This document shows, in pieces, positions 10,921 through 43,368 of a stretch of 44,514 nucleotides of DNA; position 1 is the stretch's first letter, and each line of letters opens with the position of its first letter. Where the stretch lies: UHGV virus genome UHGV-1355725; one strand, 5' to 3'. The position numbers and the translations under genes are program-made. Source of the stretch: a virus. The notes beneath the pieces were generated by a model. The model had not been told where the DNA came from and made no database searches. It saw only the letters and a list, made by a program, of their open reading frames with translations.

Positions 10921-10948
10921 AAAAGGCCCCGAAAGGGGCCTTAGTTTT
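10921..10948. terminator. bidirectional rho-independent terminator
   Basis: Hairpin AGGCCCC-gaa-GGGGCCT (10924-10941) flanked by A-run on one side and T-run on the other; lies between convergent genes (plus insertion operon, minus major tail gene). Confidence 0.6.
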
Positions 10949-12116
10949 ATGCGTAGGTGATACGCTGGATAACAATAGACGACTGGTACTGATTGCCGGT
11001 AGCCTGGCCTTCAATGGACTGAGTGATTGACTCAGGCCCGCCAATCTCTGGTGTAACCGCCGTAAGTTCCGCACGTTTCAGGCTGAAAGACATAGCCCCA
11101 TTTACCCCCGCCAGAATAGAGTTAATCTCTACCTGCTGCTCGTTGATAAACTTCTGAATCATCGCCATGTCGTACAGCTTGCCGGAGATGGAGAATGTGT
11201 TAGCTGCGCGGCCTCGCTCCACGAACGCGACGCTACTGTTGCCTAGTTCGAACTGCGCGGAAGCGCCATTGTCGTTTGTGATAGTGAGAGTGTCGCAGCG
11301 CAACGGCGTAGAACCGTCGAATACCGAAACGTCAACAGAAGAGAACGGCTCATCGGTGAACGTCACCTGCGAGAAATCAGAACCGGCTGGCGGCGCGGTA
11401 AGAATCTCCTGACTCAAGCCGATGAACGGGAAACTACCTGTCACCATCGCATTAACAGCCTGCTCGATGGTGAAACCTGATATTTCCACGCCTTTGGTCA
11501 ACATGTACGCGTCCTGGTTACCGCACTGGCCTTTGAACCATGTCAGGATGGAGAAAGTCTTACATGCGTTACCCGTTTCCAGTTTGTCGCCAGTTTTTCC
11601 ATCGGTCTCAATAGGGCCTTCGGCGGTCAGGGTGTGTTGAATACCCGCACCCGTAACCACAGTAGCAGTTACTGAGGTAACGATGAACGGCTTAGAGTTA
11701 TCGCCGGTTAAAGCGTCAAAATACAGAAGGTCCCCGACCTCTACACCGTCAGTAATGAAACTGCCAGTGTCGCGGGTGAAAGTTTTTGCTACCGGGTCTA
11801 CTGTAATACCGACAGCGGATAAGGTTACCCCATCCTGCCATGTGGATGTCATCGCACCAGCAAGGAAATCATCCTGGCTACGGGAGCTAAGCTCGATAGC
11901 GTACTCCCCGCTAACCTGCTTGTTACCGGTGCGGATGGACGTAGTTTCACGGCTGCCGTCCAGCTCGTTGGAAGTCAGTGCATCGCGGGTTACCGCAGGA
12001 ACGCCGCCAGTGTTGCGCAACGGCGACCATACCGGGTTACTTGGTGTTACACCCGGGGTCACTTCCGCCACATAGAATTGCGCGGTATTCGCGCCCTTAA
12101 AAGGAGTTGTAGCCAT
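10947..12116 (-). CDS. major tail protein
   Basis: About 389 aa from ATG 12116 with RBS AAGAGG; last large structural gene before the chaperone/tape-measure block; followed by a terminator. Confidence 0.5.
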   Translation of the reverse strand: MATTPFKGANTAQFYVAEVTPGVTPSNPVWSPLRNTGGVPAVTRDALTSNELDGSRETTSIRTGNKQVSGEYAIELSSRSQDDFLAGAMTSTWQDGVTLSAVGITVDPVAKTFTRDTGSFITDGVEVGDLLYFDALTGDNSKPFIVTSVTATVVTGAGIQHTLTAEGPIETDGKTGDKLETGNACKTFSILTWFKGQCGNQDAYMLTKGVEISGFTIEQAVNAMVTGSFPFIGLSQEILTAPPAGSDFSQVTFTDEPFSSVDVSVFDGSTPLRCDTLTITNDNGASAQFELGNSSVAFVERGRAANTFSISGKLYDMAMIQKFINEQQVEINSILAGVNGAMSFSLKRAELTAVTPEIGGPESITQSIEGQATGNQYQSSIVIQRITYA

Positions 12117-12118
12117 AT

Positions 12119-12535
12119 TCACAGCCTCTTGGTGAATGCAATAAAGTTAATTGACAATGGTCGTTTGGCCCATCCGTTTTCTACAATCAGCGGCCCCAGG
12201 CTTACCGATTGAACCTCGGCGCAGATGTCGTTACGTGAAAATGACTTACCTGCTTTAAACGCCGTGTTAAGTAAGTCTGCCATTTTATTGATTGGCGCGC
12301 TACCTTTCACCGATGCGTAGTTAATGTCAACCTGATAGACACCTGAACGTTGTTCCGTGAAGAACAAGTCCGCCTGTTCCGTATCTGCCAGCAACATGTA
12401 ACTTGCCAGATACGGCGTATCAGTTGACGTCGGTGCGTCGATGTTTTCGAGCGCGACCTTGATGCCATTGGCGGCTCCGAAAGCTACCAGCGGCACGTCA
12501 AACGCTTTGGTTAAGTCCTCAAAGTAGCCCATCAT
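12119..12535 (-). CDS. tail terminator / tail completion protein
   Basis: 138-aa ORF immediately upstream of the major tail gene; call is positional. Confidence 0.35.
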   Translation of the reverse strand: MMGYFEDLTKAFDVPLVAFGAANGIKVALENIDAPTSTDTPYLASYMLLADTEQADLFFTEQRSGVYQVDINYASVKGSAPINKMADLLNTAFKAGKSFSRNDICAEVQSVSLGPLIVENGWAKRPLSINFIAFTKRL

Positions 12536-12927
12536 TTCACCTTGTTGGCTTCTTCATTAATGAGTTGCTGGAAGCGAGACACGTTAGTCCTGACAACCCC
12601 GGCGGGGGCCTGTTGTGACCAGCCATACTCCAGCCGTTGGGCATACGGCAGATTATTTGTCAGCGTGAACTCGCGCCAGTCTGTAGCTTTAAGCACGAAA
12701 CTTGTAGCGTTTCCGGTTGCCGTATTTCCTGATTTATCCGTAGCGTCTGTAATTCCGGAAGCGGGAGTACCGCCAGACGCCATCCAGTTCATACGAAAGC
12801 GACCAGTATCTACCGGACTCGCCTTTATGATAGCGGAAAACAGTTTGATAGACACCTGACGCATCACCTTCTCAGGATTCTTCTTCGCCTTTTCTACGAA
12901 CTTAGAGACATCAAGCGCGAAACTCAT
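12532..12927 (-). CDS. HK97 gp10-like neck/tail component
   Basis: 131 aa with motif PVDTGRFRMNW typical of the HK97 gp10 family. Confidence 0.5.
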   Translation of the reverse strand: MSFALDVSKFVEKAKKNPEKVMRQVSIKLFSAIIKASPVDTGRFRMNWMASGGTPASGITDATDKSGNTATGNATSFVLKATDWREFTLTNNLPYAQRLEYGWSQQAPAGVVRTNVSRFQQLINEEANKVK

Positions 12928-13283
12928 TTTCTCACCTGAATAAAGTAAGCCACGACATCATCGTTAACCATCTTCTTCTCGATGGATACGACAGACCATT
13001 GCTCGCCGCCGAATTGTACCTTGTCTTCCATCTTCGGAACGACACTGCAATCCGCTTTAACAATCATGTCACCCGCCTGAATCGTCGTACCGTTTACCAG
13101 TCCCGCGTTTACCGGAACCGGAACGGCCTTCAACGGCAGCACTTCATCCGCAGACCAGACGTACTCACCGAGAACTTCATCCCACACTTTCGAGCCAGCA
13201 CGAACCAGAGATACCGTGCTACCGAATTTGGTTAGAAGGCGTGTACAAACGCCCTGCATACGTTTACTGAAAGCGGTGCTCAT
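12924..13283 (-). CDS. head-tail adaptor protein
   Basis: ATG 13283 overlaps the upstream stop (TAATG), RBS GGAGG; position in the head-tail joining cluster. Confidence 0.3.
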   Translation of the reverse strand: MSTAFSKRMQGVCTRLLTKFGSTVSLVRAGSKVWDEVLGEYVWSADEVLPLKAVPVPVNAGLVNGTTIQAGDMIVKADCSVVPKMEDKVQFGGEQWSVVSIEKKMVNDDVVAYFIQVRK

Positions 13284-13897: not shown

Positions 13898-13899
13898 TT

Positions 13900-14412: not shown

Positions 14413-14415
14413 AAA

Positions 14416-14595: not shown

Positions 14596-14631
14596 GACCT
14601 TTCCTTATTACGGCCCCGAAGGGCCGTTGTA

Positions 14632-14976: not shown

Positions 14977-14994
14977 TGAGGAATCCTCTTAGTA

Positions 14995-15022: not shown

Positions 15023-15037
15023 GATTATAGCTTAACC

Positions 15038-17369: not shown

Positions 17370-17620
17370 GTTTCTCCTTTCTCGATAAGTAAAGCCCCGC
17401 CATAAAGCGGGGCGCTAGTCCTTATCATTTAAACATAGAAACGGCGTAATCTCAGTAAACCCGTTACTTTTTACACAAGCAATAGAGTATGGCCCTTCCG
17501 AACGCGTCAGCGTAACTACACTCAGGACTTACGTCCCGCTCCGTTACCTGCCCGCGCCGCGGTCGCTTGTTCATGCTTCACAAGCTCAGGTGGAGCTTAG
17601 CATATTTTCAGTGAAAAGTC

Positions 17621-17636
17621 AACTATTCGAATAGTT
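17621..17636. repeat. 16-bp perfect palindrome AACTATTCGAATAGTT
   Basis: Exact self-complementary 16-mer in the non-coding region upstream of the spanin genes; contains CTATT/AATAG half-sites in inverted order relative to the operator motif. Confidence 0.9.
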
Positions 17637-17688
17637 TATTCCAACATTTACAATTCATAAGAATAACTGGAATAGGTAAATAAATAGT

Positions 17689-17720
17689 TTGCAGACACCA
17701 ATATAATAGGGTACTATTCA
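17689..17720 (+). promoter_or_regulatory. class-1 promoter with embedded inverted-repeat operator
   Basis: TTGCAG (17689-17694), 17-bp spacer, TACTAT (17712-17717); inverted repeat AATAG-GGTA-CTATT 17705-17718; RBS AGGAGG and ATG 17745 follow. Confidence 0.5.
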
Positions 17721-17744
17721 GTTAACTTAAACAGGAGGCGATAT

Positions 17745-17975
17745 ATGGGTACATACACACATTCTATAAACTGGAAAGGCAGACGTGGTTTGGCGGTTCT
17801 CGAAGGGGGTGTTTCAGGCCCCCACGCGTTTGGGTGGTGGCTAGTGCCATCGTATTCAAACAAACATGGCGGGCAGGACTACGACTGGAATAACGCCGTT
17901 CCTACTAGATTCAAAACAAAGAAAGCCGCGTTGGATGCACGTAAAGAGTTAAGAAAAGGAGGATTATTTTTATAG
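17745..17975 (+). CDS. hypothetical protein (single-gene insertion)
   Basis: 76-aa ORF with own promoter and terminator, on the opposite strand to the flanking late genes. Confidence 0.5.
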   Translation: MGTYTHSINWKGRRGLAVLEGGVSGPHAFGWWLVPSYSNKHGGQDYDWNNAVPTRFKTKKAALDARKELRKGGLFL

Positions 17976-17980: not shown

Positions 17981-18008
17981 CTAAGGCCCCATTATGGGGC
18001 CTTTTATC
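17981..18008. terminator. bidirectional rho-independent terminator
   Basis: Hairpin AGGCCCC-attat-GGGGCCT (17984-18002) followed by TTTT; lies between convergent stops. Confidence 0.6.
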
Positions 18009-18468
18009 ATTCTGGCTTAGTGACCTTCGCCGCTTTGCTTACCACCTCTACACCATCGGCATCGGTAACTTTAACGAAGTATTCACCCGCCGCGTTAACC
18101 GTCAGAGACAAAGCCTCTTCCGGGGCGTTGACTACTTCCTTACCGTCTTTGTACCAGGTCAGCACATATGGCGCTTTGCCCGCCTTAACTTCAACAGTGA
18201 TAGTTGCGCTGCCGTCTGCTGGTTCGACGTCTTTCGGTTGCACCGAGAAGTACACGTCACCCGCGTCCGCCAGATACGGAATCTCATAAAGCATACCCGC
18301 CGCCGGGAGCGCAATACCGGTTTTATCCGCAAACGGCATATCGTCTACCGGTGTACCTAGTACACTTTCATCTTCGATAAATACCACATTCTCGCTAGAG
18401 CCAGACACGCGGGCGTACTGGACTACGCGACGAGAAGGTACATCAGTTACTTTGAAAAAGCCCATCAT
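18007..18468 (-). CDS. Ig-like domain structural protein
   Basis: 153 aa; C-terminal Ig-like segment (ATITVEVKAGKAPYVLTWYKDGKEV...GEYFVKVTDADG); coupled to the head morphogenesis gene. Confidence 0.45.
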   Translation of the reverse strand: MMGFFKVTDVPSRRVVQYARVSGSSENVVFIEDESVLGTPVDDMPFADKTGIALPAAGMLYEIPYLADAGDVYFSVQPKDVEPADGSATITVEVKAGKAPYVLTWYKDGKEVVNAPEEALSLTVNAAGEYFVKVTDADGVEVVSKAAKVTKPE

Positions 18469-20405
18469 TATTCCCCTTTCAGATAATCAGCAACACGTCT
18501 ATCGAGTTCCGCCATCTGCTTAAGCGTGAGCGGATTCCCGAAACCATCTACAGATATTACGCGAAACTCTTCCGGCGATATACCGCTGTTGCGGAAAATC
18601 TTACCCCGCACCGGGCCTAACGCCTGGTCCTGAAACCATGCAGGTTGTTGTTTAAGGAACTCGTAATAAGTGGTGTCCGCACTTACCTGAGTTCCGCCAT
18701 CTGCACCCTTAGCCGCGCGTTTTGCGCCTTTATCCAGGAAGTCGAACTCTGAACTGATTACAGGTGCCGTGGTACTTCGGCAGCCAAAATGGGCTGGGGG
18801 CATTGGCCCTTTACCAATCTCCCACGTCATTCCGTCTCTGGCCCTGCAATTCTTGACTATCGCACTACCTGCTGTATAATATCCTTGACTACTAGAGAGG
18901 GTATAAACATGGCACGTTCTAAACTCGACGCTTATGCGGATGATATTTGTTCTTTGTACCGAGATGGCACTCCCGCCAGCATCATAGCCAAGAATTACGG
19001 CGTCACTACCACCACGGTAACAACATTTCTCAAGAAGCTCGGACTCATGCATGATCGACCCCGTGGTTGGGTTTCTAACGACACCATTTTGAATCAAAAA
19101 AGGGCTATAGAATTGTTCGAGTCCGGCGTCCCGCCTATTGAGTGCATAAGAAGGACCCAAGTCAGCAAAACAGTTTTCTATTCTATGGTCAAAACACTTG
19201 GCCTCGCTAAGCGCGGGCACACTCACAGGACATTCACCCCGGAGGAGAAAATCGCCAGAGCTATCGTCCGACAGCAAAGCGGCGCTATGAATAAGACTGA
19301 AACCATCGCTTTTGAATTGTTTAATTCCGCTGGCGTGGACGTAGTTCCGCAGTTTGCAATCGGCCCGTACAATGTCGATTTTGCCATTGAGTCCCACTCC
19401 ATCGCCATAGAAATCTGTTGCCGCGGGACTCGTGCTTACCATTTTCCTGATGGGGAAATCAGCGAGCGTATTAAAAATATAATCCGCTCTGGCTGGCATG
19501 TTTATGTTCTTCACTGTTTCGAGCACAGTCACTTTGTCAACAGTGGTATACAAGACATGCTTAGTTGGATCGAGTTCATCAAGCGGAGTCCATCCGTATT
19601 GCGTGAGTACAGGGTGTTTCGGGGTGCCACTGAACTTCTCGCCGTTGGAAAGTTCGATGGTAAAGATTTTTCCTGAATAGAGTCCGCGCATTACCGCGTC
19701 CATCCCCGCGATGGGCGCTAATTCTGTTTCAGCCGTGAAACACGTTGTACTGGTACGGCTGTCCAATGTTGATACCCACTCATATTTCTCGATGATGTCG
19801 TCGTTCTGGCGGTACGTCTCGTTACGTGCTTCATTGGACACGTGAGACAGCGCGGTGCGGATTACAGTAGCCGCGTTACGTTCAGAGATGTCAGCCAGTC
19901 CGCCAGCGCCTACAACACTTTTAACAATCTGCCGCGTAGTTTGGCCTTGTACGAAGCCCATCTTAACGCCAGTTACCAGGCGCGCGACTTCTGTTTCACC
20001 CCAACCTGACATCAGCTTGGTGAAGTCAACAGGCTTGTCGCTCAGTGAGAGCGGCTGAAACTCGGCGGCGGCCCACACCTGTTCTGCGGTAGGTGTAACA
20101 AATTCCGCGTTAACGTTGGCGGTCAGTGTCTTTACGTTCCACTCAGCCTCATACTTCGCCAATTCCTTAAGGTCTTCTGTCAGCTTTGTTTGCCAGTCAC
20201 CTGTAAGCCAGGTTAGCGCTTCTTCAAGGTTGAGTAACAGTTTATTCAGTCGCGCAGTGCTCCGCCCGTCGTCGCCGAATAACAGCACCTGCCGTTTGAT
20301 TTCGTCCCGCATTTCCTGAATGAACGGTGCAAGGTCTTTCACTTCTCCGGAAGCGGTTCGTTGCAGCCATATCTGGTGGCTGATTAAGGATGTAAGTAAG
20401 CTCAT
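18468..20405 (-). CDS. head morphogenesis protein (SPP1 gp7 / Mu F-like) interrupted by an intein
   Basis: ATG 20405 with RBS AGGAGG; F-like motifs WVSTLDSRTSTT (before the intein) and GKGPMPPAHFGCRS (after); 298-aa insertion with intein signatures between them; located just after the portal gene. Confidence 0.7.
   Translation of the reverse strand: MSLLTSLISHQIWLQRTASGEVKDLAPFIQEMRDEIKRQVLLFGDDGRSTARLNKLLLNLEEALTWLTGDWQTKLTEDLKELAKYEAEWNVKTLTANVNAEFVTPTAEQVWAAAEFQPLSLSDKPVDFTKLMSGWGETEVARLVTGVKMGFVQGQTTRQIVKSVVGAGGLADISERNAATVIRTALSHVSNEARNETYRQNDDIIEKYEWVSTLDSRTSTTCFTAETELAPIAGMDAVMRGLYSGKIFTIELSNGEKFSGTPKHPVLTQYGWTPLDELDPTKHVLYTTVDKVTVLETVKNINMPARADYIFNTLADFPIRKMVSTSPAATDFYGDGVGLNGKIDIVRADCKLRNYVHASGIKQFKSDGFSLIHSAALLSDDSSGDFLLRGECPVSVPALSEAKCFDHRIENCFADLGPSYALNRRDAGLEQFYSPFLIQNGVVRNPTTGSIMHESELLEKCCYRGGSDAVILGYDAGGSAISVQRTNIIRISVEFRTCHVYTLSSSQGYYTAGSAIVKNCRARDGMTWEIGKGPMPPAHFGCRSTTAPVISSEFDFLDKGAKRAAKGADGGTQVSADTTYYEFLKQQPAWFQDQALGPVRGKIFRNSGISPEEFRVISVDGFGNPLTLKQMAELDRRVADYLKGE
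18853..18880 (+). promoter_or_regulatory. near-consensus sigma70-type promoter inside the intein, antisense to the head morphogenesis gene
   Basis: TTGACT (18853-18858), 16-bp spacer, TATAAT (18875-18880); RBS GAGAGGG and ATG 18909 follow. Confidence 0.5.
18909..19676 (+). CDS. nested antisense gene: HTH domains plus DUF559/Vsr-like (PD-(D/E)xK-type) endonuclease domain, candidate homing endonuclease
   Basis: 255 aa from ATG 18909; two HTH-like segments (IIAKNYGVTTTTVTTFLKKLGL; IECIRRTQVSKTVFYSMVKTLGL); C-terminal YNVDFAIESHSIAIEI...RSGWHVYVL resembling Vsr/DUF559 endonucleases; lies entirely within the intein on the opposite strand. Confidence 0.55.
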   Translation: MARSKLDAYADDICSLYRDGTPASIIAKNYGVTTTTVTTFLKKLGLMHDRPRGWVSNDTILNQKRAIELFESGVPPIECIRRTQVSKTVFYSMVKTLGLAKRGHTHRTFTPEEKIARAIVRQQSGAMNKTETIAFELFNSAGVDVVPQFAIGPYNVDFAIESHSIAIEICCRGTRAYHFPDGEISERIKNIIRSGWHVYVLHCFEHSHFVNSGIQDMLSWIEFIKRSPSVLREYRVFRGATELLAVGKFDGKDFS

Positions 20406-20448
20406 AGGCCCTCCTGTAGTATCGACAGTGTAACGCATAAAAATAATA

Positions 20449-20481
20449 TTTGCAGACACCAATATAATAGGGTACTATTCA
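20449..20481 (+). promoter_or_regulatory. class-1 promoter with embedded inverted-repeat operator
   Basis: TTGCAG (20449-20454), 17-bp spacer, TACTAT (20473-20478); inverted repeat AATAG-GGTA-CTATT 20466-20479; 40-nt block identical to the copy at 17689. Confidence 0.5.
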
Positions 20482-20506
20482 GTTAACTTAAACAGGGGGG
20501 TTAAAA

Positions 20507-20791
20507 ATGACACACAAATTTAAAGGTACAGACGGCGCATGGGTTAATCACGGAACAGCTATCTGGGCGGGGGACGTTTATGTGGCCGAGGTAATGAGTA
20601 TGCGGGAAAAGGACTCCGTAAAATTAGCTAACGCAAAACTTATCACCTCGGCACCCGAGTTACTTGAAGCACTTCGCCAGCTTCGCGATTACGTCGAGGA
20701 TGTTTGTGCAGTATCTTCTGATGATTGCCATGAAGACCATCCATTAAATCGGGCCAACAGAGCAATCAAGAAAGCATTAGGAAAGAAATAA
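20507..20791 (+). CDS. hypothetical protein (single-gene insertion)
   Basis: 94-aa ORF between the head morphogenesis and portal genes on the opposite strand; own promoter and terminator. Confidence 0.5.
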   Translation: MTHKFKGTDGAWVNHGTAIWAGDVYVAEVMSMREKDSVKLANAKLITSAPELLEALRQLRDYVEDVCAVSSDDCHEDHPLNRANRAIKKALGKK

Positions 20792-20794: not shown

Positions 20795-20820
20795 TAAGGC
20801 CCCATAACGGGGCCTTTTTC
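20795..20820. terminator. bidirectional rho-independent terminator
   Basis: Hairpin AAGGCCCC-ataac-GGGGCCTT followed by TTTTTC; between convergent stops (20791 plus, 20822 minus). Confidence 0.6.
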
Positions 20821-20821
20821 T

Positions 20822-22297
20822 CTACTCCGATTGTTGTTGCTGCGCCGACTGCGGAATCTCCCCCGCTACCTGAGTACCCGCACCTAACGGCAGCGGCGCG
20901 TCCTCGATAGCATTCTGAATGTCCTCGTCTGTCCAGTCGGTTACGCCCGCCTTGCGCAACGCTGCGTAGTACGCAGTCGCTGGCAGCAAACCGGCGTTAA
21001 TATCGGCCATCCACTGAGCACGGTCCTGAGCGGTCATCGGTTGCAGGAAGAACTCCATGTTCAGTTTGAATTCAATCTCTGTGCCTTCACGCAACCCTAG
21101 CATTGCAGCTACCCAGCGCAGCGCATCGGTATACGCCATGCTTACGTTACGTGCGATTGTCGCCATAACAGACGTATCAGCACCGCGTTGCAGGCGGGCT
21201 GATTCGGCGGTGATTTGCTGCGTAGGGGTGATAAGCTGCGCACCAATCTGGATGGCCTGATTTTCTTTATCCAGCATGTTCTGCTTAGCGAGGTTGTTCT
21301 CCCCCGCCTGAACCAAGAACGCATTGCCGCCGTGACCGATGTTATGACCTGAGCGCGACCCCATACGCACGCCGTGAGGGTTGGCTTCTGCCCACTGTTC
21401 CATGCTCATGTTTTCACCGGGGGCGATGAACAGAGTGGGCTGGCCTACAACGAAGCTGGACTCCTCATTGTCTGCGCTGTTACGGAAATGCCCGATATTA
21501 AGCTCAGCTAACGGTAGCAAAGGCGCGTCATCGATGGTTGCGTCGTTGTTGCTTGCTCCGATGAACGTGAACGGGATTTTGCCGCGCAACTGTTCGCCAA
21601 GTTCCGGGAATATTTCGATTACTTCATCCTGGGCGCCACCTTCTGCGTCGAAGCGGTAAATGCGCTGGCGGTAGCGGCCATCAATCAGGTCGAGAACGCG
21701 GTATTGCTCCCCGAACTTTGTTTCGAACTCAGCGCCTGATTCAGAGTACTCCCATACTTCTCGCAACACGACCATCGTCACGCGGTTAACCGAACCGATG
21801 CGGGTCAGTCGCCAGTTGATGATGTTCTCTGCGGTGTAGAATGCGATGGCCGGGTTTAATAGCCCCGCGTTCTGTTCGGCTGCCGTTGCCGCAGCTGTCT
21901 CCGGGGCGTCCACCAGCAACCCGCCACGACCTACCGAGTCAATCTCCATTAGTGTATCCTGCGCGTGTTGCCACAGTCCGACACCGGAACCGTCGGCGTT
22001 ACGTAACAGGTACTCAAGCTCAGGCGGAATAATCTGCTCGGGGTCTTTGCGCATAACCGACCCCACCATCCCCGCCAGGGTACGTTTAGTGAAGTTGTAG
22101 CAGATAGCGCCGTTCTCATATTCTTCCTGGCGCTGGGCCGCGTAGGTGGGGTCAGGTTCGTTCTTACCGACGTTGCGAAGATAGCGGATAAGGTCGCCTT
22201 CCAGTGCGTGGCGCACCTTCTGCCATTTATCGAAGTGATGCAGCCATTCCCGGTGTTTTGTCTTAACACCCTGATTCTGACCGTTCATAGTTAACAT
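20822..22297 (-). CDS. portal protein
   Basis: 491-aa ORF, ATG 22297 with RBS AAGAGGA, directly downstream of the terminase large subunit; function positional. Confidence 0.65.
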   Translation of the reverse strand: MLTMNGQNQGVKTKHREWLHHFDKWQKVRHALEGDLIRYLRNVGKNEPDPTYAAQRQEEYENGAICYNFTKRTLAGMVGSVMRKDPEQIIPPELEYLLRNADGSGVGLWQHAQDTLMEIDSVGRGGLLVDAPETAAATAAEQNAGLLNPAIAFYTAENIINWRLTRIGSVNRVTMVVLREVWEYSESGAEFETKFGEQYRVLDLIDGRYRQRIYRFDAEGGAQDEVIEIFPELGEQLRGKIPFTFIGASNNDATIDDAPLLPLAELNIGHFRNSADNEESSFVVGQPTLFIAPGENMSMEQWAEANPHGVRMGSRSGHNIGHGGNAFLVQAGENNLAKQNMLDKENQAIQIGAQLITPTQQITAESARLQRGADTSVMATIARNVSMAYTDALRWVAAMLGLREGTEIEFKLNMEFFLQPMTAQDRAQWMADINAGLLPATAYYAALRKAGVTDWTDEDIQNAIEDAPLPLGAGTQVAGEIPQSAQQQQSE

Positions 22298-28751: not shown

Positions 28752-28784
28752 ATGAATAGTATCCTATTATATCTTAGCGTGCAA
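28752..28784 (-). promoter_or_regulatory. class-1 promoter with embedded inverted-repeat operator (minus strand)
   Basis: Minus strand TTGCAC (rc of 28779-28784), 17-bp spacer, TACTAT (rc of 28756-28761); inverted repeat AATAG-TATC-CTATT 28755-28768. Confidence 0.5.
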
Positions 28785-30231: not shown

Positions 30232-30264
30232 GTGAATAGTAACCTATTATGTTGGGGTGTGCAA
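30232..30264 (-). promoter_or_regulatory. class-1 promoter with embedded inverted-repeat operator (minus strand)
   Basis: Minus strand TTGCAC (rc of 30259-30264), 17-bp spacer, TACTAT (rc of 30236-30241); inverted repeat AATAG-TAAC-CTATT 30235-30248. Confidence 0.5.
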
Positions 30265-33956: not shown

Positions 33957-33990
33957 TGAATAGTACCATATTAATTATTTTAGAAAAGCC
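33957..33990 (-). promoter_or_regulatory. class-1-like promoter/operator for the regulator gene
   Basis: Minus strand TACTAT (rc of 33960-33965) with imperfect repeat AATAG-TACC-ATATT (33959-33972); weak -35 (CTTTTC). Confidence 0.4.
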
Positions 33991-33992: not shown

Positions 33993-34022
33993 TTGACAAC
34001 ATGAATAGTTAGCTATTATAGT
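33993..34022 (+). promoter_or_regulatory. class-2 promoter with embedded inverted-repeat operator
   Basis: TTGACA (33993-33998), 18-bp spacer, TATAGT (34017-34022); inverted repeat AATAG-TTAG-CTATT 34004-34017. Confidence 0.55.
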
Positions 34023-36545: not shown

Positions 36546-36574
36546 TTGACACCTGAATAGTTAGCTATTATAGT
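36546..36574 (+). promoter_or_regulatory. class-2 promoter with embedded inverted-repeat operator
   Basis: TTGACA (36546-36551), 17-bp spacer, TATAGT (36569-36574); inverted repeat AATAG-TTAG-CTATT 36556-36569, identical core to the copy at 34004. Confidence 0.55.
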
Positions 36575-37272: not shown

Positions 37273-37298
37273 CTAAGGCCCTTCATTGGGCCTTTTTA
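37273..37298 (+). terminator. rho-independent terminator
   Basis: Hairpin AAGGCCC-ttcatt-GGGCCTT followed by TTTT. Confidence 0.5.
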
Positions 37299-37466
37299 CT
37301 AAGGGTCGAAAATCATGTTTTTCTGTAAGCACGTATACCGATATATGAAACCGCTTCCGTGGTACGCGGATGAGTACCGCGCCGGGTACAGGCATGTGTG
37401 GATTTGCCGTGATTGTATGAAAATAAGACTCAGCGAAACGAAGGCAATGGATTTAAGGAAAAAGAA

Positions 37467-40400
37467 ATGAGCTACTTATACCTGGACTTTGAAACATTCT
37501 CCGAAGCCGATTTAAAGAAAGTCGGCTCCTACGCTTACGCCGAACACCCGTCAACCGAAGTTCTTATCTGTACATACGCTTTTGACGACGAGCCTGTACA
37601 GGTATGGGACTGCACAGACGGCAGCGACATGCCTGGGGATTTGCACCGCGCACTACGCCGTCTGGTGAAACCAAACAGCCGCATTAAGATGGTGTGGCAT
37701 AACGGCTCAATGTTCGATCGCCTCATCATGAAACACTGCTGGGGCTTTGATATTCCGGTAAGTAACACCATTGATACGATGATTTGGGCGTTTCGTCACG
37801 CGCTGCCGGGTTCACTTGACGCATTGTGTGAAGTGCTGGGCGTGTCCGCAGATAACGCGAAAGACAAACGTGGCAAGGCGCTGATTCAGCGTTTCTCTAA
37901 ACCTACACCGAAGAACTACAAAATCCGCCGCTACACCGCCGAAACACACCCGGACGAGTGGGCGCTGTTCATCAAGTACGCCGTGAGTGACATCACTGCG
38001 ATGCGCGAAGTATTCCATAAGCTGCCTCGTTGGGGTAACTCAGAGTTTGAAGACCGTGTACTGGAACTGGACCAGTTAATTAACGACCGCGGGTTTAAGG
38101 TTGACGTCGCACTGGCGGAAGCCGCGATCGAAGCCGTGGAGAAGCACAAGACACAGTTACAGGAAGAAGCCCAACGCAAATACGGCGGCTCGCTTACTGG
38201 TAAAGACTTCCTCCCTATTCTGCGTGAACTCGCCCCAGCGCACCGCATCCACAATGCGCAGAAGTCTACGCTGAATGACCTGCTGGCAGACGACGATTTA
38301 CCGGACGACGCCCGCGCGATTATAGAAATGCGCCTCGGGGCCGCGTCCACCGCGTCAACGAAATATAACCCATTGCTATTAGGCCGCTCATCGGACGACC
38401 GTCGCCGCGGTTGTTTACAGTACGGCGGGGCAAAACGTACCCTGCGATGGGCGGGTAAAGGCTTCCAGCCGCAGAACCTGGCGCGCGGTTACTATCACGA
38501 TGATGAACTGGATAAAGGCATTTCTGCGCTACTTAAGGGCCGTGCGCATCGCCGTTTTGATGTAGCCAAGCTAACGGCATCGACGGTGCGTAGCTGCATC
38601 ATACCGGAAGCCGGATATAAGTTTGTCGTCGCCGATTACTCTAACGTTGAAGGCCGCGGGCTTGCGTGGCTGGCGGGCGAAGAAACCGCGCTTGATACGT
38701 TCCGCGCCGGACTGGATATTTACTGTGTAACCGCAGGTAAGATGTTCGGCATGGACCCCGACGATATTAAGAAAGAACGTAAAGACTTGCGCCAGATTGG
38801 TAAAGCGTGCCTTCACCGTCATACCCTAGTTTTGACCGATGGCGGATTTAAGGATATTATGGCGGTTACATCAACAGATAAAGTATGGAGCGGTGAAAAA
38901 TGGGTGAATACAAAAGGCGCGCACCTTATGGGGTGGAAACCGGTAATAAATGTGGACGGGGTGCTAATGACCGAAGACCACAAAATCTTGGCGCATTCCT
39001 GGAAGCAGGCAAAGCAACTCGCTTCAAACAGATATATGATGGGCCTCGCCCTGGAGAGAGGTATGGACGCCTGGTTATCCTGCGCGAGTTACCAAAACGA
39101 CAAGGCCAAAGACAACTACTCGTCCAATGTGATTGCGGAGAGATGCCGTGGCGGGTCTATTACGACAATGTCAGAGCGGGTAAAACCACTCAATGCAACC
39201 GCTGCGCCCTTGAAGCAACAAAAAAATATCGTAAACAGTATTTCTGCTACGAAGACGCAATGCCGGATGATGCGCACAGAACAAGATTACTCAACCGGCT
39301 GTCCGCGGCGATCACGCGAACAACAAGCCCCAGGAATAAGGGTTATAAAAACTATGGTGCCAGGGGCATCACGGTATTCGACCAGTGGAGGACTGATAAA
39401 AGGTCGTTTCTTGGATATGTTCAAACTCTGGAAGGCTGGGACGACCCAAACCTCGAAATGGATAGAATCGACACAGACGGTAACTACGAACCTGGAAACA
39501 TTCGGTTTGTCAGCCGTTCTGAAAACTGCCGAAACAGACGGCAAATACCCGAGCTTCAACGAAAGTATGATGCAGCCGTTGCCCGCATTGCTGAACTTGA
39601 ACGGGAAATTAGCCTATTGCGAGCCGGTGTACGACCTGATTGATGTGGAAGACGGCAACCGTTTTCTTATAGCCTCAGACTCTGGCTTTCTTGTGGCGCA
39701 TAACTGCGAGCTTGGCCTCGGCTATGAGGGGGGTGTCGGTGCTTTCGTTACGTTTGCTAAAAACTTAGGTCTTGACCTTATCGAGATGGCAAAAACAATG
39801 GACGGTACTTTCCCGGGCCACATATGGGCAGCTACCGCACGCGGTTATGAGTGGGCGCGTATCCAGGAAGCAAAGCGACCGCCGCAGCCCGGCGAAAAGG
39901 ACGACCGACCGTCGTATATTTTGGACAAGAAAGTGTGGCGCACATGCGACGCGATCAAGCGTATGTGGCGCGAGTCACACCCGGAAACAGTAGCGTTCTG
40001 GCGCGACCTTAAAGACGGAATTTTAGCCGCTGTGCGTAATCCAGGTCGTGAATTTTGGGCGGGGGCACACTTGCGCAGGAATGGGGAAAGGGCAATCCGC
40101 ATATGGCGTACTGTAGAATTTGATTCATCCGGTAGGAAGGTTCCTGGTTGGTGGTTATGCATGGAGTTGCCGTCAGGCCGCATCCTCTCGTATCCGGGAA
40201 TCGGCGTTAGTGTGACAAAGGAAACAGACGAAGACGGACGGGTAAACACGAATGTGCGAATCAAGTATCAGGGGGAAAACCAGTTAACCCGCCAATGGAC
40301 CACCCTGTACACACACGGCGGCAAGGCCTGCGAAAACATTGTTCAGGCGCTGTGCCGCGATTTACTTGCCTATGCGATGATTAACGTTGAGGGTGGTGGG

Positions 40401-40565
40401 TATCCCATCGTGCTTTCTGTACACGATGAATTGGTATGCGAAACTCCAGATACGCAGGAATACAACGTGGCTGAACTGGAAAAATTAATGTGCGCGTTGC
40501 CGGAATGGGCAGAAGGCTTCCCTCTTGTAGCGGAAGGTGCGGAGATGAAGCGTTATGCTAAGTAA
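37467..40565 (+). CDS. family A DNA polymerase with 3'-5' exonuclease domain, interrupted by an intein
   Basis: Exo motif YLDFETFS, motif A VVADYSNVEGRGLAWL, motif C VLSVHDELV; ATG 37467 with RBS AAGGAA; a 299-aa insertion splits motif B (RQIGKA / CELGLGYEGG). Confidence 0.85.
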   Translation: MSYLYLDFETFSEADLKKVGSYAYAEHPSTEVLICTYAFDDEPVQVWDCTDGSDMPGDLHRALRRLVKPNSRIKMVWHNGSMFDRLIMKHCWGFDIPVSNTIDTMIWAFRHALPGSLDALCEVLGVSADNAKDKRGKALIQRFSKPTPKNYKIRRYTAETHPDEWALFIKYAVSDITAMREVFHKLPRWGNSEFEDRVLELDQLINDRGFKVDVALAEAAIEAVEKHKTQLQEEAQRKYGGSLTGKDFLPILRELAPAHRIHNAQKSTLNDLLADDDLPDDARAIIEMRLGAASTASTKYNPLLLGRSSDDRRRGCLQYGGAKRTLRWAGKGFQPQNLARGYYHDDELDKGISALLKGRAHRRFDVAKLTASTVRSCIIPEAGYKFVVADYSNVEGRGLAWLAGEETALDTFRAGLDIYCVTAGKMFGMDPDDIKKERKDLRQIGKACLHRHTLVLTDGGFKDIMAVTSTDKVWSGEKWVNTKGAHLMGWKPVINVDGVLMTEDHKILAHSWKQAKQLASNRYMMGLALERGMDAWLSCASYQNDKAKDNYSSNVIAERCRGGSITTMSERVKPLNATAAPLKQQKNIVNSISATKTQCRMMRTEQDYSTGCPRRSREQQAPGIRVIKTMVPGASRYSTSGGLIKGRFLDMFKLWKAGTTQTSKWIESTQTVTTNLETFGLSAVLKTAETDGKYPSFNESMMQPLPALLNLNGKLAYCEPVYDLIDVEDGNRFLIASDSGFLVAHNCELGLGYEGGVGAFVTFAKNLGLDLIEMAKTMDGTFPGHIWAATARGYEWARIQEAKRPPQPGEKDDRPSYILDKKVWRTCDAIKRMWRESHPETVAFWRDLKDGILAAVRNPGREFWAGAHLRRNGERAIRIWRTVEFDSSGRKVPGWWLCMELPSGRILSYPGIGVSVTKETDEDGRVNTNVRIKYQGENQLTRQWTTLYTHGGKACENIVQALCRDLLAYAMINVEGGGYPIVLSVHDELVCETPDTQEYNVAELEKLMCALPEWAEGFPLVAEGAEMKRYAK
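38808..39704 (+). mobile_element. intein in the DNA polymerase
   Basis: Begins CLHRHTLVLTDGG, block-B-like GVLMTEDHKILAHSW, ends VYDLIDVEDGNRFLIASDSGFLVAHN followed by extein Cys; the central part of the host frame is open but compositionally non-protein-like. Confidence 0.65.
38900..39643 (+). CDS. HNH-family endonuclease encoded in an alternative frame inside the polymerase intein
   Basis: Codon phase offset by one nucleotide from the polymerase; motifs RYGRLVILREL, CDCGEMPWRVYYDNVRAGKTTQCNRC, YKNYGARGITV, IDTDGNYEPGNIRFVSRSENCRNR; ATG 38900 preceded by GGAG/GGTGA; exact start uncertain. Confidence 0.6.
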   Translation: MGEYKRRAPYGVETGNKCGRGANDRRPQNLGAFLEAGKATRFKQIYDGPRPGERYGRLVILRELPKRQGQRQLLVQCDCGEMPWRVYYDNVRAGKTTQCNRCALEATKKYRKQYFCYEDAMPDDAHRTRLLNRLSAAITRTTSPRNKGYKNYGARGITVFDQWRTDKRSFLGYVQTLEGWDDPNLEMDRIDTDGNYEPGNIRFVSRSENCRNRRQIPELQRKYDAAVARIAELEREISLLRAGVRPD

Positions 40566-40917
40566 ACTGATTATCGCGGTACTGGCGGGATTCGCCGCCG
40601 GGGTCTACTGTCACGAAGGCCAATACGGCATGATTGTCGCCGTATTAGGTATGTTCATCGCAATTTATCTGTGGGTGATGGAATGAAAATTTACTGGTTC
40701 TACGAAGAAGACTGCCGAATCTGTCCGCGCTGTGGTATTGAACATACGAAACGTGAGGGGTGCGTGTTATGACAATGTTTGCATTTTGGACGATAGTAAC
40801 CATGCTCGCACTGTTACTCGGCGCGGGAATAGCCGCGATGTTCTGTTATGGCCTGTTCTTTAAGTTTGTCGGTGTTGCCGTTCTAGGAGGGGCTTTCCTT
40901 ACTTGGGTTCTGCGTTC

Positions 40918-41202
40918 ATGACCCCGGAAGGCAAAATACAGAAATACGCAAAAGAGCGATTCGAGGCCCTTGGGGGCCTCGTACGCAAATTGTCGTACGA
41001 AAATAGAGCAGGAGCGCCCGACCTGCTGGTAATTCTCCCCCGCGGCATCGTCTGGTTCGTCGAGGTTAAGAAAGACGAAAATACGAAGCCTGACCCGCAC
41101 CAGCTACGGGAACACGAGCGGATGCGTAAACGTGGTGCGAATGTTTTTGTCGTTGGTTCGTTTAAACAGGTTGACGACCTAATAGCGAGCTATTATAGTT
41201 AA
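40918..41202 (+). CDS. VRR-NUC domain nuclease
   Basis: Motif GAPDLLVILPRGIVWFVEVKKDEN...QLREHE typical of VRR-NUC. Confidence 0.6.
   Translation: MTPEGKIQKYAKERFEALGGLVRKLSYENRAGAPDLLVILPRGIVWFVEVKKDENTKPDPHQLREHERMRKRGANVFVVGSFKQVDDLIASYYS
41171..41199 (+). promoter_or_regulatory. class-2 promoter with embedded inverted-repeat operator
   Basis: TTGACG (41171-41176), 17-bp spacer, TATAGT (41194-41199); inverted repeat AATAG-CGAG-CTATT 41181-41194; lies within the 3' end of the VRR-NUC gene. Confidence 0.5.
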
Positions 41203-41232
41203 TCACACACCAACAATATAAGGAATTGAGAA

Positions 41233-41391
41233 ATGAAACCAGCGAAGTATGCCGAAAAAGTTTTCGCCTTTGTGGGCGGTGACATGAAAAAGTTTATGGA
41301 TGTTCTTATAAAAGAAATGGGTAAGCCGTTCCACGTCGCAGAACGTCAATATTATGCCTGCAAGGCCAACACATACAATAGATACGCTTAA
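41233..41391 (+). CDS. small hypothetical protein
   Basis: 52-aa ORF directly downstream of the class-2 promoter. Confidence 0.3.
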   Translation: MKPAKYAEKVFAFVGGDMKKFMDVLIKEMGKPFHVAERQYYACKANTYNRYA

Positions 41392-41408
41392 CTATAGGGA
41401 ATTGAAGA

Positions 41409-41600
41409 ATGAAACACGAATATGACCGCAAACCAGCACGTGACATTGTACCGGGCGACATGATTTTCAACGTTAGGACCCGCCGCCCTGTTGCCGTTGA
41501 TACGGTGTTCGTCGAGTCGAACGGTAAACTGGTTATCGAAGACGTAACAGGAAACGTTACCGCGTTTGGGCGGAAGGAACTGGTACTGGTGGCGAAATGA
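41409..41600 (+). CDS. hypothetical protein
   Basis: 63-aa ORF; stop overlaps the helicase ATG. Confidence 0.4.
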   Translation: MKHEYDRKPARDIVPGDMIFNVRTRRPVAVDTVFVESNGKLVIEDVTGNVTAFGRKELVLVAK

Positions 41601-43021
41601 GTAAGTTTCAGAGGCGCGAATACCAGAAGCTCATGACTTCGTTCATGTTGCAACATCCGCGCTGTAATATTTGGGCTTCGATGGGCAGCGGCAAGTCGGG
41701 GTCAACGTTGTGGGTCCTCAACCGACTGTTCCGTAATGGGCAACTTAATGACGACGACCGAGTGTTAATTCTGGCCCCTTTACGTGTTGCGTCAGGTACG
41801 TGGCCAGCGGAACAGGCACGTTGGAACTTCCCATGCCTGAATGTCGTCGATGCGACAGGTTCAGAGAAGCGCCGCATCGCGGCGCTGGAGTCAGACGCTA
41901 ATGTGGTGTGCACCAACTACGAAGTTATCGAGTGGCTCATTGACTACTACGGCAAAGACGACTGGCCTTTCACGGTTATCGTTGCCGATGAAAGCACGAA
42001 GCTGAAATCATTCCGCAGCCGTTCGGGCGGAAGCAAAAGGGCGAAGGCACTTAGTAAAGTGGCGTTCGGTAAGGTTAAGCGTTTCATCAACCTGACCGGT
42101 ACGCCGTCGCCGAACGGACTAAAAGACTTATGGGGGCAGAACTGGTTTATCGACGCTGGCGAGCGCCTGGGGTCGTCGTACACGGCATTCACAGACCGCT
42201 GGTTTAACTCTGTGCAGAAAGGTAAGTCGGCGATGGCACGGGAGTACCACGCCCGCCCTGGTGCGGATAATGAAATTCACCAGAAGATGAAGGACATTAG
42301 TCTCACGATTGACGCCGCCGAGTGGTTCGGATGTGAAGCGCCGATTATTGTACCGGTTGAAATCGACCTGCCGAAGAAAGCGCGTCAGGTGTACATTGAT
42401 ATGGAGGAGAAGTTATTCGCTGAACTGGAAAGCGGGGAAGTTGAAGCGGCTAACGCGGCGGCGAAGACGTCGAAGTGTTTGCAGATTGCTTCCGGTGCCG
42501 TGTATGTATCGGGGCCAGACGGCGAAGCAACCAAAGACTGGGAGAAAGTGCATGACACGAAGCTGGACGCGATCGAGTCGATTGTGGAGGAGTTGCAGGG
42601 TGCGCCGTTGCTTGTGGCTTATCAGTTCAAGCACGAACTGGAGCGCATCCTTAAGCGATTCCCGCAGGCACAGGCGTTTGCCAAAGGCGCTAAGGGTAAT
42701 AAGCAGATGGAAGCGTGGAACCGCGGGGAAATCGATATTTTATGCGTGCATCCAGCGTCAGCCGGTCACGGCCTCAATTTACAGGACGGCGGGCATCATC
42801 TGGCATTCATCTCGCAAGGCTGGAACCTTGAGCACTATTTGCAGGTTGTCGAGCGTATAGGTCCGGTCCGCCAGAAACAGGCAGGCCACGAGCGCCCGGT
42901 GTTCCTCTACCACATCGTGGCTAAAGACACGCTGGACGAGGTTGTTGCCGCGCGTACGGACGAGAAGAAATCGGTGCAGGAAGAATTGCTTAATTATATG
43001 AAGAGACGAGGTAAGAAATGA
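41597..43021 (+). CDS. SNF2/DEAD-like superfamily 2 helicase
   Basis: 474 aa; motif I GSGKSGSTL, motif II VIVADESTKLK, C-terminal helicase motifs HPASAGHGLNLQ and QVVERIGPVRQ. Confidence 0.8.
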   Translation: MSKFQRREYQKLMTSFMLQHPRCNIWASMGSGKSGSTLWVLNRLFRNGQLNDDDRVLILAPLRVASGTWPAEQARWNFPCLNVVDATGSEKRRIAALESDANVVCTNYEVIEWLIDYYGKDDWPFTVIVADESTKLKSFRSRSGGSKRAKALSKVAFGKVKRFINLTGTPSPNGLKDLWGQNWFIDAGERLGSSYTAFTDRWFNSVQKGKSAMAREYHARPGADNEIHQKMKDISLTIDAAEWFGCEAPIIVPVEIDLPKKARQVYIDMEEKLFAELESGEVEAANAAAKTSKCLQIASGAVYVSGPDGEATKDWEKVHDTKLDAIESIVEELQGAPLLVAYQFKHELERILKRFPQAQAFAKGAKGNKQMEAWNRGEIDILCVHPASAGHGLNLQDGGHHLAFISQGWNLEHYLQVVERIGPVRQKQAGHERPVFLYHIVAKDTLDEVVAARTDEKKSVQEELLNYMKRRGKK

Positions 43022-43203
43022 AACTTAATGTTGGCGATGAAATATACAGCGTACATTCATTCAATATTTTCACCATAGAGTACATATCAAGAGACGGCAA
43101 CAGCTTTGTTTTGGTAAGCTCGGACGGTAAATACGAAAAATCACGGTGCTACACGCTGCCAGATATAAAGCGCAGTTTCAAGAAAAGCGAAGGTAAGAAA
43201 TGA
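43018..43203 (+). CDS. hypothetical protein
   Basis: 61-aa ORF overlapping the helicase stop. Confidence 0.4.
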   Translation: MKLNVGDEIYSVHSFNIFTIEYISRDGNSFVLVSSDGKYEKSRCYTLPDIKRSFKKSEGKK

Positions 43204-43337
43204 ACATCATAGCCCCGATTCCAGCATTGCAAAAACGTATCAAGGAACTCGAAGAAGAGGTTCTGCGACTACGGCAACAGAGAGACGCCGCTAATGCGCA
43301 ACTGGCATTTGTACTGGAGAAGTTATCAGAAGAGTAG
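43200..43337 (+). CDS. small coiled-coil protein
   Basis: 45-aa ORF (LQKRIKELEEEVLRLRQQRD). Confidence 0.3.
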   Translation: MNIIAPIPALQKRIKELEEEVLRLRQQRDAANAQLAFVLEKLSEE

Positions 43338-43339
43338 AG

Positions 43340-43368
43340 AAAAGGCCCCGTTTGGGGCCTTAGTTTTA
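43340..43368. terminator. bidirectional rho-independent terminator
   Basis: Hairpin AGGCCCC-gttt-GGGGCCT with flanking A/T runs; between the plus replication module and the minus tailspike gene. Confidence 0.6.

Follow-up and report, generated by a model that had tools for sequence, protein, structure and literature searches.

The morons of the lambdoid phages HK97 and HK022 are reportedly extra genes with their own sigma-70-type promoter and intrinsic terminator, located between genes that are adjacent in related phages. Moron cargo is of lower G+C content, and each classical moron has its own signals. In T4-type phages, variable ORFans are flanked by PeSLs (promoter-early stem-loops), consisting of a sigma-70 promoter and a stem-loop terminator with a G/C-run stem; the PeSL is one compact composite motif found between co-oriented genes in ~50 copies per genome, indels and replacements between relatives end there, and recombination between copies has been proposed (PMC2839356; PMC4122927). 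A conserved 20-nt terminator motif, proposed as a recombination hotspot, has been described downstream of tailspike genes of Gamaleyavirus, Kuttervirus and Justusliebigvirus and of single Kayfunavirus and Nouzillyvirus genes, not of Kagunavirus (PMC10408124). For two relatives of the phage studied here, terminators are annotated in GenBank, i.e. on both strands at the Hoc and tailspike sites of Schulenburg (MK931438), and at the portal, Hoc, tail tube and tailspike sites of fBC-Eco01 (OM272052), the latter also having a one-strand terminator at the SSB site.

The window analysed, a stretch of 44,514 nucleotides, is as a whole the complete genome of a Kagunavirus (Guernseyvirinae), a phage of E. 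coli, with a G+C content of 50.4%. It contains four perfect copies of the hairpin AAGGCCCC-loop-GGGGCCTT, each positioned between two convergent genes. Hairpin T (10923–10942; loop GAAA) lies between the + unit 8700–10918, with the ORF 10796–10918 at its end, and the − strand tail tube gene (10947–12122). Hairpin H (17983–18003; loop ATTAT) is flanked by a + ORF (17745–17975) and the gene of a Hoc-like head decoration protein (18007–18468, −), and hairpin P (20796–20816; loop ATAAC) by a + ORF (20507–20791) and the portal gene (20822–22297, −). Hairpin S (43342–43361; loop GTTT) is found between the + replication block, of which a 45-aa ORF (43200–43337, +) abuts the hairpin, and the tailspike gene, the 3′ part of which occupies 43366–44514 (−); because the genome is circularly permuted, this gene runs on at window positions 1 to ~660. 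The pattern GGCCCC-N3–10-GGGGCC has exactly four matches in the window (starts 10925, 17985, 20798 and 43344), as against a mean of 0.03 in 100 dinucleotide-preserving shuffles, none of which reached four. A variant with a 7-bp stem, AAGGCCC-TTCATT-GGGCCTT followed by TTTTTAC, is present at 37275–37294 (+), between the + ssDNA-binding gene and the + DNA polymerase gene. The sequence-only reading, which had listed hairpins at 10924, 17984, 20797 and 43343 and the shorter variant at 37275, four of the five at points where plus and minus transcription units converge, was thus correct in both respects, with coordinates off by at most 1 nt.

The flanks, which that reading had left unmentioned, are also alike and asymmetric, the extended element being TAAAACTAA-GGCCCC-loop-GGGGCC-TTTTTCTC. 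It has + orientation in hairpins H and P and − orientation in hairpins T and S, and in hairpin T the − strand has the strong T tract (TTTTTCTC); the likeness spans ~9–10 nt of either flank. The stop codons of both convergent genes fall within the hairpin flanks, 4–8 nt from the four perfect hairpins; that of the tail tube gene is situated within the TAAAACTAA flank of hairpin T and that of the portal gene 5 nt from hairpin P.

These features are best read as those of bidirectional terminators, termination itself being a prediction from hairpin anatomy. The stems have 8–9 bp with six G-C pairs, the loops 4–5 nt, and the flanks are A-rich and T-rich. Folding of the RNA gave −15.4 to −19.6 kcal/mol for the perfect copies and about −13 for the hairpin at 37275, with z-scores of −2.3 to −5.3, and a stable fold with U-rich tails was obtained on both strands for all five hairpins. 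A consensus scan found 10923–10942, 17983–18003 and 20796–20816, three of the four perfect copies, to be terminator-like on both strands; 43342–43361 and 37275–37294 were not listed, though the scan covered their regions. The U-rich tract 3′ of the stem is UUUUUCUC, UUUUAUCA or UUUUCUCU on one side, and UUAGUUUUA or UUAUUUUUA on the other; the latter tract is interrupted and therefore probably marks the weaker side. The claim that the hairpins are bidirectional may be upheld for the four perfect copies at 10923, 17983, 20796 and 43342, which combine convergent genes with A-rich sequence upstream and T-rich sequence downstream on both strands and have annotated terminators at the syntenic positions of relatives, so that two-way termination is predicted there. 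It fails for the copy at 37275, which has + genes on either side and is a conserved one-way terminator, as predicted. Since the late operon must express the genes beyond the portal and Hoc hairpins, these could only attenuate transcription in that direction unless promoters restart it; for such restart promoters there are candidates only. A literature search on Kagunavirus, Jerseyvirinae and Guernseyvirinae yielded no transcriptome and no description of the hairpin family, only routine ARNold/PHIRE listings.

A repeated element, TTGCAG-17-TACTAT, is predicted at the sequence level to be a promoter. The motif occurs eight times in the window as against 0.04 expected, and three copies are positioned directly 5′ of the units that end at the hairpins 10924, 17984 and 20797. 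One of them (8670–8687, +) directly precedes the unit 8700–10918 (+), which is counter-oriented within the late gene block and comprises an immunity-like ORF, a phosphoesterase, an HNH endonuclease and small ORFs. In the two others the motif is part of a 61-nt element, TGAATAGTACCCTATTAT, which is common to the occupied slots in Kagunavirus and forms the 5′ end of a small cassette, one beside the portal gene (20441–20499, +; motif 20464–20481) and one beside the Hoc-like gene (17678–17738, +; motif 17703–17720; 95% identical to 20441–20499). Hairpins P and H are the 3′ boundaries of these portal-slot and Hoc-slot cassettes, respectively. The portal-slot cargo is the ORF 20507–20791, of 94 aa and belonging to phrog_1273, a family also found in the Hoc slot of other phages, and the Hoc-slot cargo is the ORF 17745–17975, of 76 aa and with no family match.

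Both slots were compared across 82 related loci. The portal slot measures 49–76 bp in ~31 loci and 249–1420 bp, with reverse-strand ORFs, in 22; in Kagunavirus loci the Hoc slot is ~346 bp long when empty and 511–1116 bp when occupied. Occupied Kagunavirus slots have the promoter motif at a fixed distance, and empty ones lack it. The GGCCCC type of hairpin goes with reverse-strand cargo at both sites, being present in 19 of 22 occupied portal slots and 32 of 37 occupied Hoc slots, and all of the ~31 empty portal slots have a one-way AGCCCC-GAAA-GGGGCT hairpin. The idea that empty slots lack a hairpin was rejected, as a one-way GCCCC-GAAA-GGGGC hairpin is located there; so was the idea that the portal-slot cassette takes the place of the minor head gene's first codons, the ATG at 20405 being conserved. 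The two cassettes of the window are alike only at their 30-nt (hairpin) and 61-nt (promoter) ends, and the portal-slot cassette of fBC-Eco01 is 95.7% identical over 622 bp, from hairpin to promoter, to the Hoc-slot cassette of Schulenburg. At least ~25 cargo families occur across both slots, four clusters being found in both, and the cargo has a G+C content of 46–47% compared with 50.4% for the genome. At both slots, the cargo thus appears as an extra gene with its own putative promoter and terminator between genes that are adjacent in relatives.

Reuse of one terminator and one promoter had been taken to indicate modular cassette exchange. Exchange is not inferable from one genome alone; the comparison of related loci supports it for two of the five hairpins, those at 17984 and 20797, where hairpin and repeated promoter bound cassettes that relatives have, lack or fill with other genes. 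The two hairpins and the repeated promoter, which on this comparison appear to bound swapped small cassettes, are a new example of known phage modularity. Hairpin junctions show no excess of lineage switches in backbone genes over other gene junctions (13/78, 9/68, 5/53, 11/59 and 12/60 at successive junctions), and the notion of the hairpins as general recombination hotspots was dropped for that reason.

The related genomes have 4–6 copies, always at the same gene ends, and there are no duplications beside single copies such as a REP/MITE-like mobile hairpin would leave. Hairpin T is kept as AAGGCCCC.[TTTC/GAAA].GGGGCCTT in 36 of 38 related loci, and the same hairpin is found 3′ of the tail-tube gene even in distant relatives without the opposite-strand unit. 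Because the stem is unchanged in relatives that lack the opposing unit, exchange is not needed to account for its identity; this hairpin is old, older than the reverse-strand unit, and its identity mostly reflects old conservation. The hairpin at 43343 is the edge of the variable tailspike module, homology to relatives beginning exactly there. In one relative that has another tailspike the hairpin at this site is a different one, and the tailspike-site hairpin of fBC-Eco01 is GCCCTC.ATAA.GAGGGC.

Taken together, the hairpins are best explained, with a probability of roughly 70%, as intrinsic terminators, of which the portal and Hoc copies together with the promoter bound exchangeable moron-like cassettes whose shared ends may serve as homology arms. 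All five would be factor-independent terminators of a lytic Kagunavirus that uses the host RNA polymerase, and four of them, acting in both directions, would shield the − strand late structural operon from the opposing + units. The TAAAACTAA-stem-UUUUUCUC side is expected to terminate strongly and the stem-UUAGUUUUA side more weakly, with the strong side turned towards the cargo in both slots and, in hairpins T and S and the copy at 37275, towards the tail tube, tailspike and ssDNA-binding genes, respectively. In both slots, the comparison shows a moron-like cassette that begins with the 61-nt promoter element (5′) and ends with the hairpin (3′). The genome codes for a gp2.5-like annealing protein and a PD-(D/E)XK-type nuclease, and the shared 30-nt and 61-nt ends may be homology arms used by the recombination functions of the phage itself; cargo could thereby move between the two slots and between phages with its expression signals retained. 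The stem sequence would be maintained by selection for pairing, shared descent and exchange, and the tail-tube hairpin may be considered as the old terminator of that gene. Alternatively, the conserved ends could be fixed expression sockets, the cargo being replaced by illegitimate recombination followed by selection.

A further-reaching version of the cassette reading is possible but doubtful. According to it, the hairpin and the 61-nt element are dedicated linkers of Guernseyvirinae, the siphovirus counterpart of the PeSL, at which cassettes would be recombined between the portal and Hoc slots and between co-infecting phages by annealing and nuclease proteins that the phage itself encodes. 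Circular intermediates might then integrate at any hairpin, leaving genes between two hairpin copies, and palindromic stems would permit exchange in either orientation, giving flipped and hypervariable loops. Accessory genes such as those of a DNA methyltransferase, a clamp-like protein and a lipoprotein-like candidate would be shuttled in this way.

Independent convergence, in which each site evolved its own strong two-way terminator and GGCCCC with A/T flanks is simply the optimum, would require neither shared descent nor exchange. The bare 8-bp stem is indeed generic, AAGGCCCC-N3–6-GGGGCCTT being found in at least 120 unrelated IMG/VR contigs; the old tail-tube copy has remained stable in the absence of a cassette, and the empty slots have the closely related GCCCC-GAAA-GGGGC hairpin. 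Convergence is nevertheless unlikely, as the similarity continues for ~9–10 nt into both flanks, the 622-bp cassettes including the hairpin are 95.7% identical at two sites and four cargo families are found at both. Moreover, the other strong terminators of the same genome have unrelated stems, and almost only Guernseyvirinae have the extended element (909 places in 496 records).

The core GCCCC/GGGGC is invariant at the portal, Hoc and tail-tube sites of Kagunavirus and Jerseyvirus, and remains constant while neighbouring genes are 67–90% identical and loops vary freely. This would suit a hairpin that is mainly an RNA or DNA recognition site for a processing nuclease, an antiterminator or a regulator, of phage or host, with termination secondary. 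Such a role is improbable in view of the pair beside the core, which covaries among G-C, A-T and C-G: in 184 GCCCC-loop-GGGGC hairpins from the 82 loci it is G-C in 114, A-T in 54, G-T in 9 and C-G in 7. The position is always paired, yet the same hairpins have 37 different loops, and stem pairing, as judged from these substitutions, is under selection. Furthermore, the variants GCCCCA.TTA.TGGGGC, GCCCCT.TAC.AGGGGC and, at the tailspike of fBC-Eco01, GCCCTC.ATAA.GAGGGC occur at the same sites, the loops, where proteins usually make contact, are less conserved than any other part, and the T tracts and stop-codon positions suit terminators. Rfam at gathering thresholds gave no match in the window, and an ARAGORN scan for tRNAs there gave none either.

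Mobility of homing endonucleases might also account for the hairpins, as targets or by-products, if free-standing HNH genes inserted beside them and copied them. In favour of this, an insert at the tail-tube site lies between two hairpin copies in KMB36, where it is annotated as an HNH gene, and in Kagunavirus 536P11; two Jerseyviruses have another gene between two hairpin copies, HNH genes adjoin the SSB hairpin in KMB36 and fBC-Eco01, and the window has an HNH gene at 10081–10554. The explanation is very improbable, however, as most of the cargo, of at least ~25 families, is without a nuclease, single portal-slot and Hoc-slot hairpins have no HNH gene nearby, and the hairpin is also found in HNH-free genomes and sites.

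Kagunavirus and Jerseyvirus phages are widely isolated for therapy and biocontrol, and their accessory genes can now be located in two slots of the head-gene block, each bounded by a fixed predicted promoter and a fixed predicted two-way terminator. This layout provides a simple rule for spotting variable genes in new isolates, and for engineering the slots may offer natural, polarity-neutral insertion sites with short homology arms. If the shared ends are recombination arms, they would represent the second independent case, after the PeSLs of T4, of regulatory sequences as exchange points; if true, this bears on phage mosaicism, where conserved linker sequences stand against random joints sorted by selection.

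Among the known systems, the terminators of Schulenburg and fBC-Eco01 occupy the same syntenic positions as the hairpins of the window and have the same stem at most of them. Since these GenBank records already annotate them, the terminators themselves are not new; the records and accompanying papers give individual ARNold/TransTerm matches only, with no mention of one sequence family or of bounds of variable cassettes. The motif downstream of tailspike genes resembles the hairpin at 43343, as compared by description, both being located just after the gene of a receptor-binding protein, where a swapped module has its edge; in contrast to that motif, the extended element of the window is almost restricted to Guernseyvirinae. 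Like the lambdoid morons, the cassettes of the window have their own predicted promoter and terminator and cargo of lower G+C content between genes adjacent in relatives; however, they belong to a strictly lytic phage and run opposite to its late operon, and many different cargo genes have common promoter and terminator sequences. With the PeSLs, the phage has in common that a repeated promoter and a stem-loop terminator bound variable genes, that cassettes with different cargo are homologous only at their 30-nt and 61-nt ends, and that the same cargo is found at two sites. Unlike the compact PeSL motif, promoter element and hairpin are 300–600 bp apart, at opposite ends of counter-oriented cassettes, and they occur in few copies in a siphovirus of 44 kb.

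The pattern GGCCCC-N3-10-GGGGCC has exactly four matches in the window against 0.03 expected, the stems with their AA/TT extension lying at 10923–10942, 17983–18003, 20796–20816 and 43342–43361; together with a 7-bp variant, AAGGCCC-TTCATT-GGGCCTT, at 37275–37294, they confirm the hairpin family proposed by the sequence-only reading. Its placing of four of the five at converging units agrees with the gene positions, since convergent genes flank all four perfect copies, with the closest stop codons 4–8 nt off the stem: the 40-aa ORF 10796–10918 opposes the tail tube gene at 10923–10942, the 76-aa ORF 17745–17975 the Hoc-like gene at 17983–18003, the 94-aa ORF 20507–20791 the portal gene at 20796–20816 and the 45-aa ORF 43200–43337 the tailspike gene at 43342–43361. 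The 37275 variant is located 3′ of a gp2.5-like ssDNA-binding gene and 5′ of the DNA polymerase gene, both on one strand. A terminator scan called three perfect copies (10923–10942, 17983–18003 and 20796–20816) on both strands and listed neither 43342–43361 nor the variant; folded as RNA, all four perfect copies reach −15.4 to −19.6 kcal/mol on either strand, and the variant about −13 kcal/mol. The copies also resemble one another beyond the stem, in a directional arrangement, TAAAACTAA-GGCCCC-loop-GGGGCC-TTTTTCTC (UUAGUUUUA on the opposite strand), the uninterrupted U tract being on the side turned to the cargo ORFs (plus-strand genes between hairpin and promoter element) at 17984 and 20797, and to the tail tube, tailspike and ssDNA-binding genes at the remaining three sites. 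The stem by itself turns up frequently in unrelated viruses, among the matches listed in an IMG/VR pattern scan; the extended element of stem and flanks is almost confined to the Guernseyvirinae (909 places in 496 records). Outside the GGCCCC family, the window also carries the hairpins GGCCCCGAAGGGCC (14612–14625; without a T tract, in every relative examined) and GGCCCTTGGGGGCC (40965–40978; conserved), as well as a strong, conserved 9-bp hairpin with a T tract within the second tail-chaperone ORF (7973–7996).

Escherichia phages of the genus Kagunavirus (Guernseyvirinae, lytic siphoviruses) are about 90% identical to the window, the minus strand of which carries the late structural genes. 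A tailspike ORF of 604 aa is unbroken once the window's end is joined to its start (43366–44514 plus 1 to about 660, minus strand), and the window is thus a complete, circularly permuted genome opened within the tailspike gene. No RNA polymerase gene was found among its long ORFs or in the annotation of the close relative KMB36, from which we infer that transcription of the phage depends on the host RNA polymerase. The minor head protein (664 aa; 18468–20462, minus strand) and the DNA polymerase (1050 aa; 37413–40565, plus strand) both far exceed the length seen in most relatives, to which they align in two pieces; this suggests intein-type insertions; the KMB36 annotation reads 'minor head protein with inserted intein'.

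As predicted terminators these hairpins are unremarkable, and the records of relatives annotate them already. The GenBank record of phage Schulenburg has both-strand terminators after the Hoc-like and tailspike genes, syntenic with the window, and that of fBC-Eco01 (OM272052) has them after the portal, Hoc-like, tail tube and tailspike genes, with a one-strand terminator after the ssDNA-binding gene. The latter record labels its ARNold hits 'Rho-dependent terminator', where its paper says rho-independent, and one of its 'phage promoter' features, at 3337–3382, simply overlaps the portal hairpin. The papers accompanying the relatives' records merely count the ARNold hits, no Rfam family matches the hairpins, and no description of them as one family, or as tied to variable genes, was found in the literature on Kagunavirus and Guernseyvirinae. 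What appears to be undescribed so far is the pattern at the level of the family and its tie to swappable cassettes, but the kind of phage modularity that they represent is known.

This tie was examined in 12 whole genomes and 70 IMG/VR loci (the portal gene with up to 10 kb either side). At about 31 loci the portal/minor-head junction is empty, a gap of 49–76 bp with a one-way hairpin, AGCCCC-GAAA-GGGGCT; at 22 it is occupied, 249–1420 bp long and holding between one and three reverse-strand ORFs, and in 19 of the 22 the two-way form is present, AAGGCCCC-loop-GGGGCCTT followed by TTAGTTTTA. The Hoc-like/spanin junction repeats the pattern, empty slots (n = 14, about 346 bp) having mostly AAGCCCC-GAAA-GGGGCTT and occupied ones the GGCCCC form (32/37). 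In the empty portal slots (loci L001, L002, L126, L127, L131 and about 26 from IMG/VR) the minor head start codon follows some 50 nt past AGCCCC-GAAA-GGGGCT with no obvious promoter in between, so that late transcription must traverse this hairpin. At the hairpin end the window's two cassettes agree over about 30 nt (90% identity), and at the promoter end over 61 nt (95%), their likeness being limited to these ends and their inner genes unrelated to each other; a clamp-like cassette is found in both the portal slot of fBC-Eco01 and the Hoc slot of Schulenburg, 95.7% identical over 622 bp from hairpin to promoter. The reverse-strand ORFs of the slots form 47 clusters, at least about 25 of which look real, and four, including the family of the window's 94-aa ORF, are present in both slots. 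A DNA methyltransferase, a KilA-N-like protein and a lipoprotein-like ORF are among the cargo, most ORFs of which had no match in a family search, and its G+C content is 46–47%, below the 50.4% of the genome and the 56% of the portal gene. Over 20555–20791 the 94-aa cargo gene shares 80–91% DNA identity with genes of the unrelated siphoviruses swi2, Sf11, Skate and STGO-35-1, the match stopping at the ORF stop codon and not including the hairpin.

Occupied Kagunavirus slots all have the motif TGAATAGTACCCTATTAT, at a constant distance from their far end, and empty slots do not have it. Eight copies occur in the window (8670–8687, 17703–17720, 20464–20481, 28753–28770, 30233–30250, 33957–33974, 34002–34019 and 36554–36571) against 0.04 expected, and those at 8670, 17703 and 20464, reading TTGCAG-17-TACTAT on the cargo strand, stand directly 5′ of the three plus-strand units that end at the hairpins at 10924, 17984 and 20797. 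The motif, which includes the inverted repeat AATAG-N4-CTATT, overlaps sigma-70-like promoters (TTGCAG-17-TACTAT or TTGACA-17/18-TATAGT); it may be an operator as well as part of a promoter. It is the repeat given as 'phage promoter' consensus in the fBC-Eco01 paper, a label that PHIRE users apply to it even though no RNA polymerase gene was found in the phage. Downstream of the Hoc slot, a perfect palindrome with halves AACTATTC and GAATAGTT (17617–17636, minus strand) adjoins a TTGACT hexamer, and the GAATAGT half-site that it has in common with the motif makes it a candidate regulated promoter in the late direction.

The proposal that the reused terminator and promoter indicate modular cassette exchange holds for two of the five hairpins, those of the portal and Hoc slots with their shared ends and variable cargo. 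At the tail tube the hairpin is AAGGCCCC.[TTTC, GAAA, TTCC or GTTT].GGGGCCTT in 36 of 38 loci and is kept in distant relatives (portal 73–78% identical) in which the next gene is on the same strand and no unit opposes it; it is thus an old terminator of the tail tube gene, and its identity is explicable without recent exchange. In some genomes two hairpin copies surround a gene inserted at this site (L001, 12392–12936; L127, 12295–12839; L129, 12712–13511; L130, 12642–13441), the insert being an HNH gene in KMB36, with Kagunavirus 536P11 arranged alike, and a different one in two Jerseyviruses; this looks like integration at the hairpin or duplication of it. At the tailspike site, the homology of relatives to the window starts at the first base past the stem, the tailspike side being unrelated, and fBC-Eco01, with another tailspike, has a different hairpin, GCCCTC-ATAA-GAGGGC, which indicates that the terminator can travel together with the tailspike module. 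The 37275 hairpin is kept in Kagunavirus as a predicted one-way terminator.

Among 184 GCCCC-loop-GGGGC hairpins, the pair adjacent to the core is G-C in 114, A-T in 54, G-T in 9 and C-G in 7, and although its identity differs, the position holds a standard pair in 184/184, a covariation favouring pairing. The loops take 37 forms. In a 748-column alignment of the clamp-like cassette from Hoc or portal slots (L002, L128, L133 and others), no other 5-nt window varies as much as the loop, which has 11 alleles among 13 sequences (the median is 3), and the stems are invariant. The 4-nt tail-tube loop (10931–10934 in the window; also L003, L124, L126 and 35 further loci) is GAAA in 11 loci and the exact complement of that, TTTC, in 21, with flanks that are nearly identical, which suggests that it was physically flipped (repeatedly), or exchanged, within the palindromic arms.

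Judged from their form, the hairpins would terminate the host RNA polymerase both ways, more strongly on the UUUUUCUC side, and would bar counter-oriented transcription from the late genes and late transcription from the cargo. The 30-nt and 61-nt ends that the cassettes share would let homologous recombination move cargo, possibly via the phage's gp2.5-like annealing protein and a PD-(D/E)XK nuclease. Three points count against claiming more. Conserved ends would also be expected of fixed 'sockets' in which cargo is replaced illegitimately, the bare stem is not peculiar to these phages, and backbone genes change lineage at much the same rate whether or not a junction carries a hairpin.

In other genera, a conserved terminator that follows tailspike genes has been put forward as a site of recombination (PMC10408124). 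At the sequence level, the window's cassettes fit the definition of morons. They resemble the promoter-early stem-loops (PeSLs) of T4-type phages in that their signals bound variable ORFs, but they are not PeSLs, because the promoter lies apart from the stem-loop and the units have the inverse orientation.
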